From the NCBI GenBank assembly GCA_019637355.1, contig JAHBVT010000001.1, positions 1,145,192-1,209,191 of the forward strand: a stretch of DNA of 64,000 nucleotides, given 5' to 3'. This document shows positions 2,240 to 47,760 of this stretch, in pieces. Positions within the stretch are counted from its first letter, which is position 1. Each line of letters opens with the position of its first letter. The DNA is from Gemmatimonadaceae bacterium (GTDB lineage Bacteria; Gemmatimonadota; Gemmatimonadetes; Gemmatimonadales; Gemmatimonadaceae). Both the position numbers and the translations under genes were made by a program. The notes beneath the pieces are model-generated. The model saw nothing but the letters and a program-made list of their open reading frames with translations. It did no database searches and was not told where the DNA came from.

Positions 2240-4792
2240 TCAACCGTCAAGTACCGCCCGGACTGCCCGCTCAAGCGCTTCCAAACCGTACGGCTTAGAA
2301 ATGAAGTGCCCCCCCTCCAGCCCGAACTGCTGCGCCACCGCGTCCCGCGAGTAGCCTGACGTAAACAGCACCCGCAGCCCCGGGATCCGCTCGTGCAGCG
2401 CCGCCGCCAGCTCCGGCCCCGTCATCCCCGGCATCACCATATCCGTGATGAGCAGTTCCACCTGCGGCGTGTCCGCTGCATCCACCAGCGCCAACGCCGC
2501 CTCGCCGCTGCCGGCTTCCAGCACGCGATAGCCGCGCATCGTCAGCACCTTCACCGCCACGCGGCGGATTGCGTCTTCGTCCTCCACCACGAGCACCGTC
2601 TCGCCCTTGTGGACCAGGGGGCCGCCGGCGGCGGGGGTGTGAGCGGCCAGGCCCTCGGCGCGGACCAAGGGCACGTCGCCGGCGTTCACTGCCGACAGCT
2701 TGGTGGGGCCCGAGGGACGCTCGACGATGTCTTCCGGCACGCGCGGGAAGAACAGCTTGAACGTGGTGCCGCGCCCGGGCTCGGAGTACACCCAGATGCT
2801 GCCGCCGATCTGCCGCACGATGCCATACGCCGTCGGCAAGCCGAGCCCGGTGCCCTTGCCGGCGGGCTTGGTGGTGAAGAACGGTTCGAAGATCCGGTCG
2901 CGCGTGACGGCGTCCATCCCGTGTCCGGTGTCGCTCACATAGAGGGCCACGTACTCGCCGGGCTGCACCGTGACGTGCCGCGCCGCCTCGGCGTCGAGCA
3001 CCACGTTCTCGGTGCTGATGGTGAGCGTGCCACCCTCGGGCATCGCGTCGCGGGCGTTGACGCTGAGGTTCATCAGCACCTGCTCCAGTTGCCCGGCGTC
3101 GCCCATCATCTTCCAGAGCTGGTTGCCGGGCTGCACCGCGATGGTGACCTGTTCGCTGATCACGCGGGTGATCAGCGTGACCACCTCGCGCACGACCTGG
3201 TTGAGGTCCAGCACCTTGACCTCGAGCACCTGCTGTCGGCTGAAGGCGAGCAGTTGCCGCGTGAGCCGCGCCCCGCGTTCGCTGGCTTGCTTGATCGTGC
3301 GCAGGTCCTCGTGCAGCTCGCCGTCGGGCGGCACCTGGGCCAGCGCCACTTCCGCGGTGCCGCTGATGACCGTGAGCAGGTTGTTGAAGTCGTGCGCCAC
3401 GCCGCCGGCGAGCCGCCCGATGGCCTCGATGCGCTGCGACTGCTGCAGTTGCAGCTCCAATGCGCGCCGCGCCGTGATGTCGCGCTTGATGGCGATGAAG
3501 TGCGTGATCTCGCCCTGCGCGTCCTTCACCGGCGTGATCGTCTGCTCTTCGGTGTACTCGGTGCCATCCTTCTTTCTATTGATCAATTCGCCGCTCCACA
3601 CCTGGCCCGCGAGCAGCGTGTTCCACATCCGCTCGTAGAATTCGCGGCCTTGGCGGTTGGACTTGATCAGGTCTCGCGGATTCTTCCCCAGCGCTTCCTG
3701 CGCCGGGTACAGCGTCAGCGCGCAAAACGCCGGATTCACCCACTGGAAGTTGCCCTCGCGGTCGGTGATGGCGATGGCGTCGACTGTCGCGCTGAGCGCC
3801 GCCGCCTGCAGCGCGTTGCGCGCCTCGGCGTCGCGCTGCTCCGTGATGTCCACCATCAGGCCCTGCAGGCAGAGCGGCTCGCCGGCGTCGTCGTGCAGCA
3901 CCTGGGCCGTGTCGTGCAGGATGCGATACGTGCCGTCGGCGCGGCGGAATCTGTAGGTGATGTCCACCGCATCGCCGCACGCGCGCTGCTCCTGTAGGCG
4001 CTCGAGCGTCGCCTCCCGGTCCTCCGGGTGCAGGCAAGCCACCCAGAGGTCCGGCGAGGCCGTCCAGGTCTCCACCGAGTAGCCGAGGCGCTGGATGGCC
4101 GGGCTCACGTACAGCGTCGTCGACTGCTCGTCCAGCGCCGCGCGGTACACGATCGCCGGCACCTGCTCCGTGAGCGAGCGGAAGCTCTTCTCGCGCTCGG
4201 CGAGCGCGCGCATCGTGGCGGCGCGATGCAGGCGGTCCTGCAGCAGCCAGCCGAGGAAGACCGCGGCGGCCGCGGAGGCTACGGGTAGCACCGGCGTGAG
4301 GTACCGGAGGTGTTGCCACGTCTCGTCGTCAAACTGCGAGCGCGCCAACCCCAGTTGCATCGCGCCGACCAGCGTCCCCAGCACCACGAACTCCACGACG
4401 TGCAACTCCTCAACCTTCCTCTGCCGCATTTCGCGCCACGCCAGCCCTAGCAACGCCGAGAGCACGATGAACGCAACGCCAACCGGCGCGAAAGCGCCAC
4501 CTACCGCGAGCCGGTACGCCACGGCCATCGCCACCGCGACGCTGGTCGGCAGCGCGCCGAGGAACAGTCCGCTCATCACCAGCAGGATTCCGCGCGTGTC
4601 GAGGTACGCCCCCGGCTCAACTTCCACGCGCGCCAGCATCGCCCCGATTGCCAGCGCCCCGATCAGGAAGCCGAGCAGCAGCTCACCGCGGCGCCCGAGC
4701 CGACTCGTCGTGCGGCGAGTGAACAGGTCGACCACGACTGCGGCGGCGAGCAATAACGCAGCGTTCTGAGCGAACTCGCCAAGGAAGGCCAT
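2240..4792 (-). CDS. Hybrid sensor histidine kinase (5TM LytS/YhcK-like, two PAS, HisKA, HATPase, receiver)
   Basis: H-box GRLAGGVAHDFNNLL; N-box QVLMNLSVNARDAM; G-boxes; receiver VLVVEDEDAIR...LITDMVMPGMTG. Start moved to MAFLGEF because the upstream ORF extension is repeat-derived. Confidence 0.92.
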   Translation of the reverse strand: MAFLGEFAQNAALLLAAAVVVDLFTRRTTSRLGRRGELLLGFLIGALAIGAMLARVEVEPGAYLDTRGILLVMSGLFLGALPTSVAVAMAVAYRLAVGGAFAPVGVAFIVLSALLGLAWREMRQRKVEELHVVEFVVLGTLVGAMQLGLARSQFDDETWQHLRYLTPVLPVASAAAAVFLGWLLQDRLHRAATMRALAEREKSFRSLTEQVPAIVYRAALDEQSTTLYVSPAIQRLGYSVETWTASPDLWVACLHPEDREATLERLQEQRACGDAVDITYRFRRADGTYRILHDTAQVLHDDAGEPLCLQGLMVDITEQRDAEARNALQAAALSATVDAIAITDREGNFQWVNPAFCALTLYPAQEALGKNPRDLIKSNRQGREFYERMWNTLLAGQVWSGELINRKKDGTEYTEEQTITPVKDAQGEITHFIAIKRDITARRALELQLQQSQRIEAIGRLAGGVAHDFNNLLTVISGTAEVALAQVPPDGELHEDLRTIKQASERGARLTRQLLAFSRQQVLEVKVLDLNQVVREVVTLITRVISEQVTIAVQPGNQLWKMMGDAGQLEQVLMNLSVNARDAMPEGGTLTISTENVVLDAEAARHVTVQPGEYVALYVSDTGHGMDAVTRDRIFEPFFTTKPAGKGTGLGLPTAYGIVRQIGGSIWVYSEPGRGTTFKLFFPRVPEDIVERPSGPTKLSAVNAGDVPLVRAEGLAAHTPAAGGPLVHKGETVLVVEDEDAIRRVAVKVLTMRGYRVLEAGSGEAALALVDAADTPQVELLITDMVMPGMTGPELAAALHERIPGLRVLFTSGYSRDAVAQQFGLEGGHFISKPYGLEALERAVRAVLDG

Positions 4793-6020: not shown

Positions 6021-8747
6021 ATGCACGCCGCCGAAATCCGCCGCCGCTTCCTCTCCTACTTCGAGCGGCAAGCCCACGCCGTCCGCCCCAGCTCCTCCCT
6101 CGTCCCCGCCGACGACCCCACCCTGCTGTTCACCAACGCGGGGATGGTCCAGTTCAAGAAGGTCTTCCTCGGCCAGGAGCAGCCCCCCGAGGGCAACCGC
6201 CGCGCGACCACGAGCCAGAAGTGCGTCCGCGCCGGCGGCAAGCACAACGACCTCGAGCAGGTGGGCCACACTGCGCGCCACCACACCTTCTTCGAGATGC
6301 TGGGGAACTTCTCCTTCGGCGACTACTTCAAACGCGATGCGATTCGCTTCGCCTGGGAGTTCGTCACCGAGGAGCTGAAGATCCCGCAGGCGCACATCCG
6401 CGTCACGGTCTACAAGGACGACGACGAAGCCCGCCAGCTCTGGGTGAAGGAGACCGGCATCGACGCCAGCCGCGTCTACGGGCTCGGCGAGAAGGACAAC
6501 TTCTGGCAGATGGCCGACACCGGCCCCTGCGGCCCCTGCTCGGAGATCTACGTCGACCTCGCCCACTTGGCGAAGGACTTCGAGTTCCCCGCAGGCGCCA
6601 GCGGCGAATGGACCGACCGCAAGCGCACGGACTTCTCGCAGGACGCCTTCGTCGAAGGCGCCGAGGCAGGGCGCTTCCTCGAGATCTGGAACCTCGTGTT
6701 TATGCAGTTCGACCGGCAGGCGGATGGCACGCTCATCCCGCTGCCGAAGCCCAGCGTCGACACCGGCGCCGGCCTCGAGCGCATCGCCGCCGTGATGCAG
6801 GGCGTCGCGAACAACTACCACACCGATCTCTTCACGCCGCTGCTCAAGCGCGTGGCCGAGATCACAGGCACGCCCTACGCCTACAGCAACGAGAACTCGG
6901 CGTCGTACCGCGTGCTCGCAGACCACGCGCGTGCGGTGAGCTTCCTGCTCGCCGACGGTGTGTTCCCGAGCAACGAAGGCCGCGGCTACGTGCTGCGCCG
7001 CATCCTCCGCCGCGCCGTGCGCCACGCCTGGCTGCTCGGCCGCCGCGAACCCACGCTGGTGCTCGTGGTCGAGACGCTGTTGGAAATGATGCAGGAGCAC
7101 TTCCCCGAGCTCGCCTCGCGCAAGAAGCACATCCTCGACACCACGCGCGCCGAGGAAGAGCGATTCCTCGCCACCATCGAAGGTGGCCTCGACCGCTTCG
7201 AGCAGTTGGCGCCCAAGGGCAGCACGCAGGGCAGTTCGGCGATTCGCGGTACCATCGCAGGAGAGGACGTTTTCAAGCTCTACGATACATTCGGCTTCCC
7301 GGTGGACCTCACCGAGCTGATGGCCCGCGAGCGTGGTTATCTGGTGGACGTCGCTGGCTTCGAGGCAGCGCTGGGTGCGCAGCGGAAGCAGAGCCAGGAG
7401 GAGCGGAAATCGCGCAAGCTGTCCGTGGCGGCGGATGAACTGGGCGACCTAGCTAGCTGGACGGATGACGGAGGACGGATGCAAACGACTTCCGCTGGGC
7501 GGTTTGTGGGCTATACGGCCACTTCCGTCTCCACCGCTGTCGTGGGCATCAAGGAGCTGGACGACGGGCAGGTGGCGGTGATGCTTGCTGAGTCGCCGTT
7601 CTACGCCGAGTCGGGTGGGCAGGTCTCGGACCGCGGAGAGATCCGTGGCGAGAACTGGTCGGTGGACGTGACTGAGGTGCGCAAGATCGACGGCAAGGTG
7701 GCGGCGATCGGATTGCCCTCGGGGACGGTGCGCTTCGGGCTGGCGACGGCGACGGTGCCGGCGGACCTGCGCCGCGACACCGAGCGCAATCACACCGCGA
7801 CGCATCTCCTGCACGCCGCCCTCCGCCACGTACTCGGCGAGCACGTGCACCAAGCCGGCTCGCTCGTGGCGCCGGACCGCCTGCGCTTCGACTTTACGCA
7901 CCACGGTCCCATCGGCGCCGAGCAGTTGGCGATGATCGAGCAGATGGTGAACGACGGCATCTGGGCCAACGTGGAGCTGCGCATCGCCGAGAAGACATAT
8001 CAGGAGGCGATTGCCGGCGGCGCGATGGCGCTCTTCGGCGAGAAGTACGGCGACGTGGTGCGCGTGGTGGAGATTCCGGGGCTCAGCACCGAGCTCTGCG
8101 GCGGCACGCACGTGAAGAACACGGGGACCATCGGCCTCTTCCGCATCGTGAGCGAAAGCGGCGTGGCCGCCGGCGTGCGTCGCATCGAGGCGCTCACCGG
8201 CCGTGGGGCCTTCGCGCTGCTGCGCGAGCGTGAGCAGACGCTGGCTGGGCTCGCCGAGCGTCTCAAGGTCAACGCACTCTCGGCGGACGTGATCGGGAAG
8301 AAGCTCGATAGCCTGCTGGCCGAGAAGAAGACGCTCGAGAAGCGGCTCGACGAGGCGCTCAAGGGCGGCGGGGCGCAGCAGGACCTGCTGGGCGGCGCGG
8401 AGATTGTGGGCGGCGTGAAGCTGGTGGCCAAGCCGGTGAAGGTGCCGACGATGAAGGACCTGCAGGCGCTCGGCGACGTGGCGCGCGAAGGGCTCGGCTC
8501 AGGCGCAGCTGCGCTGCTCGGCGAGTTTGAGGACGGGAAGCTCGGCCTGGTCGTGGTGATCACTGACGACCTGCGGGCACGCGGGCTCTCTGCGGGGGCC
8601 ATCGTGAAGGCGCTAGGCGCCAAAGCCGGCATCAAGGGCGGCGGCAAGGAGCATATGGCCCAGGCTGGGGTGCCGGACGGTCGCGGTGGCGACGTGTTGG
8701 CGTTGGCCGCTGCCGAGCTGCGGAGTTTGCTCGGCTCTGGTGCGTGA
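6021..8747 (+). CDS. alaS: Alanine--tRNA ligase
   Basis: Motifs DPTLLFTNAGMVQFK, HHTFFEMLGNFSFGDYFK, CGPCSEI, NHTATHLLHAALR, ELCGGTHV, KGGGKEHMAQAG. Confidence 0.98.
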   Translation: MHAAEIRRRFLSYFERQAHAVRPSSSLVPADDPTLLFTNAGMVQFKKVFLGQEQPPEGNRRATTSQKCVRAGGKHNDLEQVGHTARHHTFFEMLGNFSFGDYFKRDAIRFAWEFVTEELKIPQAHIRVTVYKDDDEARQLWVKETGIDASRVYGLGEKDNFWQMADTGPCGPCSEIYVDLAHLAKDFEFPAGASGEWTDRKRTDFSQDAFVEGAEAGRFLEIWNLVFMQFDRQADGTLIPLPKPSVDTGAGLERIAAVMQGVANNYHTDLFTPLLKRVAEITGTPYAYSNENSASYRVLADHARAVSFLLADGVFPSNEGRGYVLRRILRRAVRHAWLLGRREPTLVLVVETLLEMMQEHFPELASRKKHILDTTRAEEERFLATIEGGLDRFEQLAPKGSTQGSSAIRGTIAGEDVFKLYDTFGFPVDLTELMARERGYLVDVAGFEAALGAQRKQSQEERKSRKLSVAADELGDLASWTDDGGRMQTTSAGRFVGYTATSVSTAVVGIKELDDGQVAVMLAESPFYAESGGQVSDRGEIRGENWSVDVTEVRKIDGKVAAIGLPSGTVRFGLATATVPADLRRDTERNHTATHLLHAALRHVLGEHVHQAGSLVAPDRLRFDFTHHGPIGAEQLAMIEQMVNDGIWANVELRIAEKTYQEAIAGGAMALFGEKYGDVVRVVEIPGLSTELCGGTHVKNTGTIGLFRIVSESGVAAGVRRIEALTGRGAFALLREREQTLAGLAERLKVNALSADVIGKKLDSLLAEKKTLEKRLDEALKGGGAQQDLLGGAEIVGGVKLVAKPVKVPTMKDLQALGDVAREGLGSGAAALLGEFEDGKLGLVVVITDDLRARGLSAGAIVKALGAKAGIKGGGKEHMAQAGVPDGRGGDVLALAAAELRSLLGSGA

Positions 8748-8804
8748 GGTCGGCGCGGAGCGGGAACGCCGGAATGTTCCGCCACCAGCCGCGGTGCAGA
8801 GGTG

Positions 8805-8833
8805 TTGACGTGGTCGGCAGATGTTCGTAGTAT
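8805..8833 (+). promoter_or_regulatory. Sigma70-type promoter upstream of the small RNA / NYN gene
   Basis: TTGACG at 8805-8810, 17 bp, TAGTAT at 8828-8833. Inverted repeat TATTCGG-N8-CCGAATA at 8831-8852 spans the start site. Confidence 0.7.
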
Positions 8834-8839
8834 TCGGGT

Positions 8840-8907
8840 GCCGCTCCGAATAGTATTTAATGGAGCGGTCTATTTAGGGAGCCCCTGCGGGGGCTCCCTT
8901 ATTTTTT
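8840..8907 (+). ncRNA. Candidate ~68-nt structured small RNA or attenuator leader upstream of the NYN nuclease
   Basis: Hairpin CCGCTCC (8841-8847) / GGAGCGG (8862-8868) with an AT-rich loop, followed by an intrinsic terminator; it lies between the promoter and the CDS. Confidence 0.5.
8876..8907 (+). terminator. Rho-independent terminator between the promoter and the NYN gene
   Basis: AGGGAGCCCC-TGCG-GGGGCTCCCT followed by TATTTTTT. Confidence 0.85.
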
Positions 8908-8922
8908 GCCCCTGGAGGGTCT

Positions 8923-9756
8923 ATGGATCGTGTTGCCGTGTTTGTCGATGCCGGTTACGTATTTGCTCAGGGCTCCGTCCTTCTCAGTGGCCAGAAGCAG
9001 CCTCGTGGAGACCTCCGACTGCACGCTGTCGCTGCCCTGCAGGCCCTGACGGCGTTTGCCGAATCGACGGCGGCGCTGCCGCTACTTCGGATTTACTGGT
9101 ACGACGGCACGTCAGTCGGCCCCACTGCTCAACACACCGCGCTGGCGCACCTTCCCTCAGTCAAGGTTCGCCTTGGCTTCGTGAATCGCGCGGGAGAGCA
9201 GAAGGGAGTGGATTCGTTGATTGTGACCGACATGATCAGTCTCGCACGCAACCGGGGGATGGCCGATGCCGTTCTCGTGTCGGGGGACGAGGATCTGCGA
9301 GTCGGAGTGCAACAGGCGCAAGAGTTCGGAGTTCGTGTGCACCTTCTTGGTATTGAACCGAGTCGCGGAAATCAATCGCAGTTTCTCCTGCAGGAAGCGG
9401 ATACGTGCCACGAGTGGACGGCAAGCGATGTGGCCGCGTTTCTCGCGTACGTGCCACGCGACGCTCAAGCGAAGCACGCGACTCCAGTCCCTTCGGGGGT
9501 CGTCGCGCCACAGGGAAGCACGGGACACCCCTACGACGCAGTCATTCGCGAGACGGCGCTTGAGCTTTCGCGTGAGCTGCTGCCTCTCATTGTCTCGGGG
9601 TACAAGGCGGCCGCCCAGATTCCGCGCGAGGTCGATGCGAAGCTCCTCGCCCGCGCGCGCAGGGTGCTGTCCCGCGACTTGGAGCCAAGAGAGAAGAAAG
9701 ACCTCCGCATTCGCTTCATCTCGTTCTGCGAGCGCCGGGTGACGGGCCCAGGCTAG
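8923..9756 (+). CDS. NYN domain (LabA/DUF88, PIN-like) ribonuclease
   Basis: Motifs VAVFVDAGY, LRIYWYDG, EQKGVDSLIVTDM, VLVSGDEDL, GVRVHLLGI. Confidence 0.9.
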   Translation: MDRVAVFVDAGYVFAQGSVLLSGQKQPRGDLRLHAVAALQALTAFAESTAALPLLRIYWYDGTSVGPTAQHTALAHLPSVKVRLGFVNRAGEQKGVDSLIVTDMISLARNRGMADAVLVSGDEDLRVGVQQAQEFGVRVHLLGIEPSRGNQSQFLLQEADTCHEWTASDVAAFLAYVPRDAQAKHATPVPSGVVAPQGSTGHPYDAVIRETALELSRELLPLIVSGYKAAAQIPREVDAKLLARARRVLSRDLEPREKKDLRIRFISFCERRVTGPG

Positions 9757-9865
9757 TGCTCTGTCCCGGGCGCTCCCGCTCCTCGCCTCTCCATCAAGCT
9801 CTCGGCCGTACGCTACTTGCCGCGCGTCACGTGACGCGTTACAATCGCTATCAGGAGGAGGTGCT

Positions 9866-10180
9866 ATGGCAATCGCGAATACCAAGGCCCGCGAGGCTCG
9901 GCCAATTCACCCTGGCGAAATTTTGCGTGAGGATTTCGTGCCCCAGTACGGCCTCACGGTGGCTGGGCTCGCTGCGGCTGCGGGTGTGTCGCGGCAGTCG
10001 ATCAACGAGCTCCTGCGCGAGCGCCGGGCGCTGAGCCCCGAGATGGCCCTGCGCTTGAGTGCGCTTTTCGGGACAACGCCGGACTTCTGGCTCAACCTGC
10101 AGCGCAACGTGGATCTGTGGGATGCGGGCAGGGCGCTCAAGCGGTCAGGCACGAGGATCCGTCGGCTGCGCGTCGCCTGA
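9866..10180 (+). CDS. higA: HigA-family addiction-module antitoxin (orphan)
   Basis: Motifs PIHPGEILREDF, LSPEMALRLSALFGTTPDFWLNLQRNVDL; strong RBS aggaggagg. Confidence 0.9.
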   Translation: MAIANTKAREARPIHPGEILREDFVPQYGLTVAGLAAAAGVSRQSINELLRERRALSPEMALRLSALFGTTPDFWLNLQRNVDLWDAGRALKRSGTRIRRLRVA

Positions 10181-10242
10181 ATCGCTCGGCCACCGCGGAG
10201 TTGCGCGCCGTAGTCGCGTCTTCTGCGTGCTAGAGGCGCGGG

Positions 10243-10300
10243 GCGGGAGCGTCCGAAGGGGCCGTGCGCGAAGCGGTCAGGCCCCGTAGGACGCTCCCGC
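10243..10300. repeat. REP-like palindrome, copy 1
   Basis: Arms GCGGGAGCGTCC / GGACGCTCCCGC around the core GAAGGGGCCGTGCGCGAAGCGGTCAGGCCCCGTA. Confidence 0.85.
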
Positions 10301-10681: not shown

Positions 10682-11914
10682 GTGGACGAGCAACTCCACG
10701 TCCTGCTCGCAGACGGGCCGTCCCCGCGGCGCGTGGGACGGCTGCGCGACGTGGGCACCGGCCCGCACTTTGAGTTCGATCCTGACTTCCTCGGCGAGGG
10801 CATCGAGCTCTCACCGCTGACGCTCCCGCTGCGCGCCGGCGTGGTCGGGCCAGGGCCTCGGCATTGGCACCGGCTGCGCGGACTGTTCGGCGATGCCATC
10901 CCCGACGGATTCGGGCTCAAGGTGCTGCACCAGGCGCTGCGTCGCGGCGGGCGCGACCCGCGCCGCGTGACGCCGCTGCAACTGCTCGCCGCCGTGGGCG
11001 ATCGCGGGATGGGGGCGCTGTGCTACCGGCCAGCCGACGCGCTGTGGGGGGAGCCAGCGGAACTGCCGTCGCTGGCCGAACTCTCCGCCGAGGCCGCGCG
11101 GGTAGATGCCGGCGACATCGACGAGCTGCCCGACGCGCTACGGCGCGCCGCCGGTGCGTCGGGCGGCGTACGGCCCAAGGTGGCGGTCGCGCTGCACGCG
11201 GATGGGCGCGTGCGCGACGCCAGCCTGCCTCTGGCCGAGGGCTTCCGGCCCGTACTCGTGAAGTTCCGCGCCGCGCTGGATCCCGCGACGCAGGTGCCGG
11301 TGGAGGCGGCGTACCTCCAGATGGCCGCCGCTGCCGGACTGCAGGTGCCGCGGCAGGAGCTGGTCGCGTTGCCCGGCGGCGAGGCGGCGCTGGTGCTCGA
11401 TCGCTTCGACCGCAGCGGGGATGGGCGGCTGCACGTGCAGAGCTTTGCGGCGCTGCTCGAGCTGGACTTCCGGGTGGATCTGGTGGACTACGACACCCTG
11501 CTCGACACGACGCGTCGCCTGACGCGCGACTTTGCGCAGGTGGAGCAGGCGCTGCGGCTCGCCGCGTTCAACGTGCTGGCGGGCAATCGCGACGACCACA
11601 TCAAGAACATCTCGTTCGTGATGTCGCCCGACGGCCGCTGGCGGCTGGCGCCGGCGTACGACCTGACGCCGAGCGTCGGCGGCGGGTACCACGCGATGTC
11701 CTGCGACGGGGAGTCCGTACGGCCCACCGCCGCGCACGTCGAGCGCGTGGGCCTGCGGGCGGGCTTCGATCGCTCCCAGGTCCGCGCGGTGCTGGAGGAA
11801 GCGCAGGCGGCCCTCGCGCGGTGGGAGGAGTTCGCCGAGGCCAGCGCGGTACCCGCGCAGGTGCGGCGTGAGGTGGGGCGATCGCTCGGAGGGAGGGAGT
11901 CGCCGCGCCCGTAG
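10682..11914 (+). CDS. hipA: HipA-family kinase toxin
   Basis: Motifs LFGDAIPDGFG, ASGGVRPKV, LVLDRFDR, GNRDDHIKNISF, WRLAPAYDL. Confidence 0.92.
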   Translation: MDEQLHVLLADGPSPRRVGRLRDVGTGPHFEFDPDFLGEGIELSPLTLPLRAGVVGPGPRHWHRLRGLFGDAIPDGFGLKVLHQALRRGGRDPRRVTPLQLLAAVGDRGMGALCYRPADALWGEPAELPSLAELSAEAARVDAGDIDELPDALRRAAGASGGVRPKVAVALHADGRVRDASLPLAEGFRPVLVKFRAALDPATQVPVEAAYLQMAAAAGLQVPRQELVALPGGEAALVLDRFDRSGDGRLHVQSFAALLELDFRVDLVDYDTLLDTTRRLTRDFAQVEQALRLAAFNVLAGNRDDHIKNISFVMSPDGRWRLAPAYDLTPSVGGGYHAMSCDGESVRPTAAHVERVGLRAGFDRSQVRAVLEEAQAALARWEEFAEASAVPAQVRREVGRSLGGRESPRP

Positions 11915-11943
11915 GGGCCGTGCGCGAAGCGGATGAGCCCCGC
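11895..11943. repeat. REP-like palindrome, copy 2 (degenerate right half); supplies the hipA stop codon
   Basis: GGGAGTCGCCGCGCCCGTAGGGGCCGTGCGCGAAGCGG is identical to the copy at 12760. Confidence 0.75.
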
Positions 11944-12397: not shown

Positions 12398-12810
12398 TGC
12401 GGAAGGAGATGTTCGAGGAACTCCTGCAGAGTATTCGGGAGATGAAGGAGATTGAGGCAGGCCGCCTAAAGCCCGCTCGCATCACGTCGAGCGAGGAGAT
12501 CTTGAGCCGCGATGTTCGTGACGTGGCTGCCCTTCGTCAGCATTTCGGCCTCAGCCAGCGGAAGTTCGCCGCCCTCCTCGGCATCAGCGTCGGGACGCTG
12601 CAGAACTGGGAGCAGGGCCGGCGCCAGCCCGAGGGCCCGGCCCGGGTCCTGCTACGGGTAGCCGCCGCGCATCCGGAAGCCGTGTTGGACGTCGCGAAGG
12701 TGGGGCAGGTGAAGAAGGCGGGGCGGGTGAAGAAGGCGGGGCAGGTGGTGGGGCAGGGAGGGAGTCGCCGCGCCCGTAGGGGCCGTGCGCGAAGCGGTCA
12801 GGCCCCGTAG
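12397..12810 (+). CDS. HTH antitoxin (HigA2/NadS-like) with a repeat-derived C-terminal tail
   Basis: Motifs MRKEMFEELLQSIRE, LSQRKFAALLGISVGTLQNWEQGRRQPEGPARVLL; overlaps the toxin stop (TGATG). Confidence 0.88.
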   Translation: MRKEMFEELLQSIREMKEIEAGRLKPARITSSEEILSRDVRDVAALRQHFGLSQRKFAALLGISVGTLQNWEQGRRQPEGPARVLLRVAAAHPEAVLDVAKVGQVKKAGRVKKAGQVVGQGGSRRARRGRARSGQAP

Positions 12811-47692: not shown

Positions 47693-47760
47693 GGGATCAC
47701 AGCACGCCCTTCGGGGCCTGACCTCTGCGCGCACGGCCCCTACGGGCGTGCTGTGCTCCC
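47693..47760. repeat. REP-like palindrome, copy 4 (minus orientation)
   Basis: Arms GGGATCACAGCACGCCC / GGGCGTGCTGTGCTCCC around the reverse-complement core. Confidence 0.82.

Follow-up and report, generated by a model that had tools for sequence, protein, structure and literature searches.

The stretch of DNA analyzed here, called the window throughout, comprises 64,000 nucleotides (nt) of a Gemmatimonadaceae genome (contig JAHBVT010000001.1) and carries a predicted, unannotated small RNA (sRNA) gene of about 68 nt, which lies directly 5' of an NYN nuclease gene and has its own promoter and terminator. The promoter, hairpin, terminator and NYN start described in an earlier reading of the letters alone (the sequence-only reading) were borne out by direct reading, coordinates included (Table 1). 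Furthermore, a consensus scan listed both the sRNA promoter and the terminator; in 10 kilobases (kb), it found 4 promoter-like sites versus 0.4 expected from shuffled sequences.

The predicted transcript consists of two hairpins, P1 and P2, joined by a short linker. P1 is built on the core CCGCTCC/GGAGCGG (7 bp), which is lengthened by G.U pairs at both ends. P2 is a perfect 10-bp G+C-rich helix (8876-8885 with 8890-8899, loop UGCG), and its letters, AGGGAGCCCC-TGCG-GGGGCTCCCT (8876-8899), are followed by the T-tract TATTTTTT (8900-8907). Folding of a 70-nt RNA returned exactly P1 and P2, with a free energy of -37.7 kcal/mol (z = -5.8), and none of 200 shuffled sequences was as stable. Since there is no room between the terminator and the start codon, the NYN gene would have no promoter of its own and would be expressed by terminator read-through. 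The G+C content of the module (0.61-0.63) is lower than that of its flanks (0.67-0.75). No tandem repeats were detected in the region (Tandem Repeats Finder, 0 rows), in agreement with the sequence-only reading, and the element has no second copy in its own 3.1-Mb genome.

Table 1. Predicted features of the sRNA-NYN module; positions are counted from the first letter of the window, and aa denotes amino acids of the NYN protein.
Feature	Position	Strand	Description
-35 hexamer TTGACG	8805-8810	+	sRNA promoter; direct reading and consensus scan
-10 hexamer TAGTAT	8828-8833	+	17-nt spacer from the -35 hexamer; ends 7 nt 5' of the first P1 base pair
Predicted sRNA of about 68 nt	8840-8907	+	P1, linker, P2 and U-tail; transcript ends inferred from promoter and terminator
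P1 hairpin	8840-8869	+	8840-8848 pairs with 8861-8869; 12-nt A+U-rich loop AAUAGUAUUUAA at 8849-8860
Single-stranded linker CUAUUU	8870-8875	+	Family consensus YUACUA; UA positions nearly invariant in alignments
P2 hairpin and T-tract	8876-8907	+	Intrinsic terminator; also a conserved part of the RNA
Shine-Dalgarno GGAGGG	8914-8919	+	Direct reading; the closest homologue (G027) has GGAGGG at the same place
NYN-family open reading frame (ORF), 277 aa	8923-9756	+	ATG at 8923, 15 nt past the T-tract
NYN domain	aa 3-163 (8929-9411)	+	Pfam PF01936
Poorly modelled linker	around aa 185-204	+	AlphaFold2 model; disordered at 192-199
Four-helix C-terminal domain	aa 205-274 (9535-9744)	+	AlphaFold2 model

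The conservation of the RNA was evaluated in a homologue scan limited to one genome per species, which yielded 80 loci; the 130 nt 5' of each start codon were inspected, and 79 of the homologous loci include upstream DNA. A covariance model (R1, with rough E-values) built from an alignment of 61 copies (A1) placed the element directly upstream of NYN, on the same strand, in 68 of these 79 loci (E <= 0.003) and scored the window element at 69.6 bits (8833-8908, E = 6e-16). No clear match was obtained at the other 11 loci, whose homologues are the most distant (46-53% identity); 3 of these loci show a weak match at the same place. The model is also specific, as it found essentially nothing besides the NYN-upstream element in 680 kb. 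Weak matches of 29-34 bits in four acidobacterial genomes were discarded as ordinary GC-rich terminators. The RNA-NYN pair recurs in more than ten bacterial phyla, with loci in Gemmatimonadota, Acidobacteriota, Verrucomicrobiota, Alpha- and Gammaproteobacteria, Myxococcota, Planctomycetota, Rhodothermales, Spirochaetia and others, and the order of promoter, RNA, terminator and nuclease proposed in the sequence-only reading holds across phyla.

Both helices are supported by covariation, as that reading had anticipated for the upstream regions of NYN homologues. RNAalifold recovered P1 and P2 from the 61 copies, with compensatory changes in 14 of 15 pairs. Among 89 distinct sequences, 97.6% of the cells hold standard pairs, and 14 of the 15 pairs are changed on both sides (169 cells). 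None of 500 shuffles reached any of the five measures used, and slid registers were only 32-67% paired. For P1, both partners have changed in 7 of 8 consensus pairs and pairing is found in 96% of cells, while all 7 consensus pairs of P2 covary, with 99.4% of cells paired. The G.U pair that closes P1 is kept in 73 of the 89 copies, and consequently the structure can form only on the NYN-sense strand, which indicates an RNA feature. The consensus reads 5'-(G)nCG-CCCC-G / A-CUA-N5-9-AA / U-GGGG-CGn(C) / YUA-CUA-nn / GGGCYCC-UUCG/UGCG-GGRGCCC / UUUnUUUU. Its unpaired loop (ACUA...AAU), its linker (UA-CUA) and the sequence of P2 are kept across phyla. As judged from the alignments, this sequence conservation of P2, loop and linker exceeds the needs of a plain terminator.

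The expression signals are conserved as well. A sigma-70-type promoter matching at least 9 of 12 consensus positions precedes 41 of the 89 copies, and TTGAC(A/G) stands at -35 in most of the 89. In 29 of those 41 promoters, the -10 hexamer ends 7-8 nt before P1; given this conserved distance, transcription should start at the foot of P1. At the other end, at least 5 T occur in the 9 nt past P2 in 81 of the 89 copies. The NYN start codon follows P2 by about 8-140 nt, mostly 10-35 nt, and it abuts the T-tract in several Verrucomicrobiota and Acidobacteriota. In the closest relative (G027, 65% identity), the upstream 80 nt are 79% identical, and the spacer has diverged around a conserved TTGACG-17-TATGCT.

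The RNA does not belong to any catalogued family that we could find. Rfam 15 gave only four sub-threshold matches to unrelated families in the window region, the best being sbrA (28.6 bits versus a gathering score of 45), a generic hairpin-plus-terminator resemblance. No match fell on the motif in 13 homologous loci, and hence the Rfam check suggested in the sequence-only reading returned no family, the abiF motif included, at the gathering threshold for the window or for these loci. No description of an NYN-associated RNA was found in the full-text literature searched.

A chance arrangement, in which a fortuitous promoter-like site happens to lie next to the terminator of the upstream gene, is barely conceivable, since the element travels with NYN in unrelated contexts and both helices covary. 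The argument for chance comes from alaS, the gene upstream in the window, which ends at 8747; there is no terminator between alaS and P2, and P2 probably also ends alaS transcripts there. Just past the alaS stop, at 8756-8763, the letters CGGAGCGG are a copy of the P1 3' strand, and in alaS read-through transcripts they could pair with the P1 5' strand (8841-8848). Overall, comparison between genomes firmly supports a conserved RNA gene that is functionally tied to this NYN family.

The sequence-only reading had also pointed to a possible pseudoknot between loop and linker. The complementarity of AATAG (8849-8853) and CTATT (8870-8874) is present, but in the window copy only, and comparative support is absent; as a family feature, the pseudoknot was rejected, with a longest loop-linker helix of 3.54 nt on average versus 3.66 +/- 0.08 nt with permuted partners. 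Instead of complementary segments, loop and linker tend to share the same word. In the window, UAUUUA occurs in the P1 loop (8854-8859) and at the linker (8872-8877). The word is UACUA(C) in the majority of loci, and it co-varies between loop and linker in others (L027, L029, L037, L040 and L045 among them) as GUAUUU, UAUACG, UAUUAG, UUAAUA or UAGUA. The longest word common to loop and linker averages 4.19 nt versus 3.84 +/- 0.10 nt with permuted partners (0 of 1000 permutations), and 4.07 versus 3.72 nt among 58 representatives (1 of 1000), although relatedness and base composition may still contribute. If the effect is real, the shared word suggests two equivalent sites that would be read by one protein, through binding or cleavage.

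The protein encoded next to the RNA matches a single Pfam family, NYN (PF01936, LabA/DUF88-like), with 49.6 bits versus a cut-off of 24.2 (E = 7.7e-13). The search for full-length homologues matched more than 4,475 proteins, with identities of 55-69% for the best of them. All 37 homologues in an alignment share the acidic residues D9, D97, D103, D122, E123 and D124, in keeping with an active metal-dependent NYN nuclease. In this alignment, conservation is very high over the N-terminal 176 residues, the linker is variable, and the C-terminal 70 or so residues keep the pattern P-x3-D-x2-LL...R-x2-F. The AlphaFold2 model (mean predicted local distance difference test score, 90.6) comprises an alpha/beta domain, the poorly modelled linker and a four-helix C-terminal domain. 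The C-terminal 110 or so residues received no Pfam assignment in the scan of the full protein, and the C-terminal domain alone gave no Pfam match. Among solved structures, Foldseek against the PDB returned only Rossmann-like noise (E > 0.002), and a sequence profile search of the PDB found no relative of the protein. PADLOC gave no significant match, including none to ToxN, AbiQ, CptN or TenpN. The statement in the sequence-only reading that NYN stands outside the toxin families of ToxIN, CptIN and TenpIN therefore agrees with both the Pfam and the PADLOC results.

In the window, the module is followed by a solitary HigA-like gene, a hipBA operon and a RelE-like/Xre pair, and thus it heads a toxin-antitoxin cluster, as had been described. 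This description is valid for this genome, but elsewhere the neighbours are mostly housekeeping genes. The commonest neighbor gene cluster occurs in 4 of 81 NYN loci, and a Pfam scan of 104 immediate neighbors found scattered housekeeping functions (for example, HSP70, glutamine synthetase and argininosuccinate synthase) and a few transposase-type domains. The toxin-antitoxin cluster around the window module is, by this comparison, a local accident. Since no neighbor gene is conserved, NYN appears to be the only module-borne partner of the RNA, and since nothing else travels with the module, the RNA would have to work with NYN or with universal host machinery.

These neighborhoods also bear on a type II pairing, in which the HigA-like protein (9866-10180) would neutralize NYN in place of the RNA, an outcome that the sequence-only reading had named as contrary to its proposal. 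The HigA-like gene does adjoin NYN, and it has no HigB partner in the window. However, neither HigA nor any other gene is conserved beside NYN in the 81 loci, the closest homologue (G027) has a kinase-like ORF after NYN, and the HigA-like gene has a promoter-like site of its own at 9817-9845. We consider this pairing very improbable, and the original statement that no protein antitoxin is evidently paired with NYN has gained weight from the larger sample.

The module is sporadically distributed. Only 1 of 60 relatives of the same genus and order carries it (G027), and R1 matches occur in 5 of 401 genomes of the phylum. Among 301 genomes of one acidobacterial class, 9 have a full-length NYN (one with an in-frame TGA), and all 9 have the RNA directly upstream, including 2 weak variants seen only with filters off. 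Four other genomes of this class have a strong RNA (57-72 bits) without a functional NYN: one has no NYN (G463), two share an NYN truncation after about 31 codons (G464 and G473), and in one an in-frame deletion removes the nuclease domain (G564). In this last genome, the deletion (L141) fuses the first 12 or so NYN codons to the C-terminal helical domain, giving a mini-protein of about 66 aa behind an intact sRNA.

Similar losses were found elsewhere. In the phylum of the window, one genome (G093, 97% complete) lacks NYN altogether but retains the RNA (74 bits) behind an intact promoter, and in another (G412) NYN is split over two frames. An exact-pattern scan of metagenome contigs for the RNA core found 16 distinct loci, of which 7 have an NYN that is intact or runs off the contig end, 4 have a frameshifted one and 5 have lost it. 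Two of the five losses keep only the first 3-5 codons, and in a third NYN has been replaced next to IS66-type genes. The frameshifts could partly be assembly errors, although two recur in independent assemblies. A full-length NYN without the RNA was never found, and the RNA often outlives NYN. In one pair of orphan loci (L113 and L114), the RNA is 89% identical versus 81% for the upstream sequence, a difference too small for a conclusion. At another locus (L023), a second, orphan sRNA copy (4304-4378, 65.6 bits) lies 0.8 kb downstream of a complete sRNA-NYN module and about 90 nt 5' of a nucleotidyltransferase (MNT)/HEPN-like gene pair.

Furthermore, the module is found on mobile replicons, where the RNA forms are weak variant matches and the proteins are distant homologues. 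In the plasmid variant, the linker, P2 and U-tail are as in the main form and the P1 loop differs; this RNA precedes full-length homologues. It lies beside a RES-Xre pair on pNGR234a of Sinorhizobium fredii NGR234 and on a related plasmid, and also occurs on plasmids of Azospirillum thermophilum and A. oryzae. The A. thermophilum plasmid (L118) has two tandem sRNA genes (2245-2318 and 2429-2490) before a single NYN gene, each with its own promoter-like site and with identical terminator hairpins. Among viral contigs of IMG/VR, 16 encode NYN homologues of 42-48% identity, and in 15 of 15 checked the variant RNA ends about 10-15 nt before the start codon. Two exact patterns found no viral contig with the RNA alone. 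These occurrences firmly support the sRNA-NYN pair, as recognized by sequence comparison, as an autonomous mobile unit. On pNGR234a (L117), the RefSeq start of NYN, at 2708, is internal; judged by homology and by the sister plasmid, the gene starts with a TTG at 2501, just past the sRNA terminator, and includes positions 2501-2707 as well. At another locus (L056), a tRNA gene at 3689-3761 lies about 155 nt 5' of the sRNA-NYN module, a place that may be an integration hot spot.

Two kinds of explanation without an antitoxin have to be weighed against these data. First, the RNA could be a cis-acting leader, that is, the 5' untranslated region of the NYN mRNA, which NYN or a host factor would bind or cleave to set read-through, mRNA stability or translation, as feedback on a non-toxic nuclease. 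A related case is the eukaryotic NYN/PIN-like RNase Regnase-1, which cleaves a stem-loop in its own mRNA. Such a leader would account for the constant place of the RNA between promoter and ORF, for an NYN gene without its own promoter and for the fact that NYN is never found without the RNA. Ribosome binding could also be hindered by P2 at many loci, where no more than about 10 nt separate it from the start codon, and the orphan RNAs of G464 and G473 show no extra conservation. Nevertheless, we regard a leader as unlikely, though deserving serious attention. The alignments contain no evident, conserved antiterminator pairing (only loop-linker pairing was formally assessed, and this proposed tertiary contact fails), and in a riboswitch or attenuator the sensor part would be a single hairpin of 8-9 bp. 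P2 is kept across phyla beyond the needs of a plain terminator, and a purely cis-acting model offers no role for the second tandem RNA gene of A. thermophilum, which has its own promoter and terminator. Intact orphan RNA genes with intact promoters recur, and a gene that is often lost and is sporadic and mobile in its distribution, as NYN is, is more readily explained as costly or selfish than as a regulated housekeeping gene.

Second, the RNA could support the activity of NYN in a ribonucleoprotein, as a cofactor, a scaffold or a subunit that confers specificity. Bacterial Rsr (Ro60) is a horizontally spread protein gene that adjoins a dedicated gene for a structured Y RNA, which binds the protein; the Y RNA is a gate or tether and not an antidote, Rsr/Ro60 is not a nuclease, and the pair has no sequence or structural similarity to sRNA-NYN. 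The strict co-inheritance of RNA and protein as a unit across phyla agrees with a cofactor, as does the co-varying loop and linker word, which looks as if it were read by a protein; in the structure model, the C-terminal helical domain could hold RNA. However, loci with the RNA only are common, although a cofactor would have no use once its enzyme is gone, and a hard-wired over-production of the RNA fits an inhibitor better. No target-like complementarity hints at guiding. A cofactor role is, in our view, improbable.

We hypothesize that the module works like a type III toxin-antitoxin system, in which an abundant sRNA would restrain an NYN nuclease made only by terminator read-through, and we give this interpretation about an even chance. 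The sigma-70-type promoter would drive the structured sRNA of about 68 nt, most transcripts would stop at P2 and leave free sRNA in excess, and NYN would be made at a low level. The sRNA would then bind the NYN protein and hold the nuclease inactive, perhaps as a pseudo-substrate with two equivalent sites. If the element were lost, or if a phage shut down host transcription, the module would no longer be transcribed, and decay of the sRNA would free the nuclease. We favor this type III-like scheme because an excess of RNA over protein is hard-wired into the expression design, because the sequence of P2 is conserved, because the A. thermophilum plasmid has an extra tandem RNA gene, because NYN is often inactivated with the RNA retained, and because the distribution is sporadic, with carriage on plasmids and phage-like contigs.

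Several observations weigh against the antitoxin role. RNA-protein binding, inhibition, toxicity, the excess of sRNA over NYN mRNA, transcription of the RNA and its termination at P2 are all inferred. The RNA lies between the sole promoter and the gene, and hence the absence of any NYN without the RNA is also expected for a cis-acting leader. The RNA is non-repeated and the protein is not ToxN-like, in contrast to the classical type III families, and PADLOC found no significant match. The immediate neighbors are mostly housekeeping genes, with no defense-island context. Moreover, the orphan RNAs of G464 and G473 show no extra constraint, as their flanks are 97% identical and the RNA 94%, and orphan RNAs in general could be neutral leftovers.

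The proposed system can be compared with known modules in which an RNA accompanies a toxin gene. ToxIN, CptIN and TenpIN likewise have a promoter, an RNA gene, a Rho-independent terminator and a nuclease gene on one strand (PMC8860590, PMC13682666, PMC5772629). They share with sRNA-NYN the production of the toxin by read-through and a small mobile module that has no protein antitoxin and is carried on plasmids and phage-like contigs. In contrast, their antitoxin is a tandem array of 34-36-nt repeats, whereas here it would be a single two-hairpin unit (with two complete genes at one locus); their toxin is a ToxN/AbiQ-fold RNase, whereas NYN has a PIN-like domain and a helical C-terminal domain; and their antitoxin is a toxin-bound pseudoknot, a fold that is unsupported here. 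By these sequence features, the sRNA-NYN module belongs to none of ToxIN, CptIN and TenpIN.

Closer parallels exist for a single RNA. In Clostridioides difficile, the RNA RCd22 lowers expression of the toxin AbiF_Cd and neutralizes it in cis and in trans by direct binding, and the abiF RNA motif was first known only as an orphan motif from comparative genomics (PMC12373285). As here, a conserved structured RNA motif lies 5' of a gene for a putative RNA-targeting toxin. The proteins differ, however (Abi_2/AbiD/F versus NYN), as do the RNAs, since RCd22 carries two abiF motifs and the present RNA is a single unit in which a short word occurs twice. In AvcID, a non-repeated sRNA antitoxin is encoded 5' of the toxin in the same orientation and greatly outnumbers the toxin mRNA, and activation follows from transcription shut-off and decay of the labile RNA (PMC10511110), the same trigger as proposed for sRNA-NYN. 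The AvcID toxin is a deoxycytidylate deaminase, unlike the NYN nuclease family, and its RNA of about 170-300 nt has no predicted terminator between the genes, in contrast to the 68 or so nt and strong terminator found here. AvcID and AbiF/RCd22 thus set a precedent for the pairing of a single-copy RNA antitoxin with a toxin that is not related to ToxN.

In a more extended form, the module could be the first known member of a new and very widespread class of RNA-antitoxin (type III-like) or abortive-infection systems, which we consider possible but somewhat short of an even chance. Its toxin would be of the NYN/PIN-like type, and its antidote a single sRNA of about 68 nt whose two co-evolving YUAYUA words, one in a hairpin loop and one single-stranded, would act as a pseudo-substrate for a dimer. 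The class would have spread between phyla on plasmids and phages, and orphan sRNA genes would protect against incoming copies, as anti-addiction or immunity elements.

Thousands of NYN proteins, whose only annotations are 'NYN domain-containing' or 'hypothetical', form a family that travels with a structured RNA of its own; neither Rfam nor genome annotation includes this RNA, and the covariance model makes it possible to label it in genomes. An antitoxin role, if borne out, would bring a new nuclease fold and a new, non-repeated type of RNA into the range of RNA-antitoxin systems. Soil phyla (Acidobacteriota, Verrucomicrobiota and Gemmatimonadota), in which the module is common and toxin-antitoxin and defense biology is almost unexplored, would gain such a system as well. 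Whatever its role, the pair is small and specific, which suits biochemistry and structural work, and cultured carriers are available: Sinorhizobium fredii NGR234 (pNGR234a), Azospirillum thermophilum, A. oryzae and Microvirga arabica.

Downstream of the module, the solitary HigA-family gene of the window (9817-10180 including its promoter-like site; TIGR02607, E = 3e-30) is preceded by the promoter-like TTGCCG-17-TACAAT. A 53-nt repeat resembling repetitive extragenic palindromic (REP) elements, with the core GGGGCCGTGCGCGAAGCGG and the ends GGGGCC...GGCCCC, occurs at 10234-10286, 11890-11942 and 12755-12807, in each case at, or overlapping, the 3' end of one of the three toxin-antitoxin cassettes (HigA, HipBA and RelE-like/Xre). 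This REP-like repeat also occurs near 47722, 47846 and 50509, giving 6 matches in the window versus 0 expected by chance.

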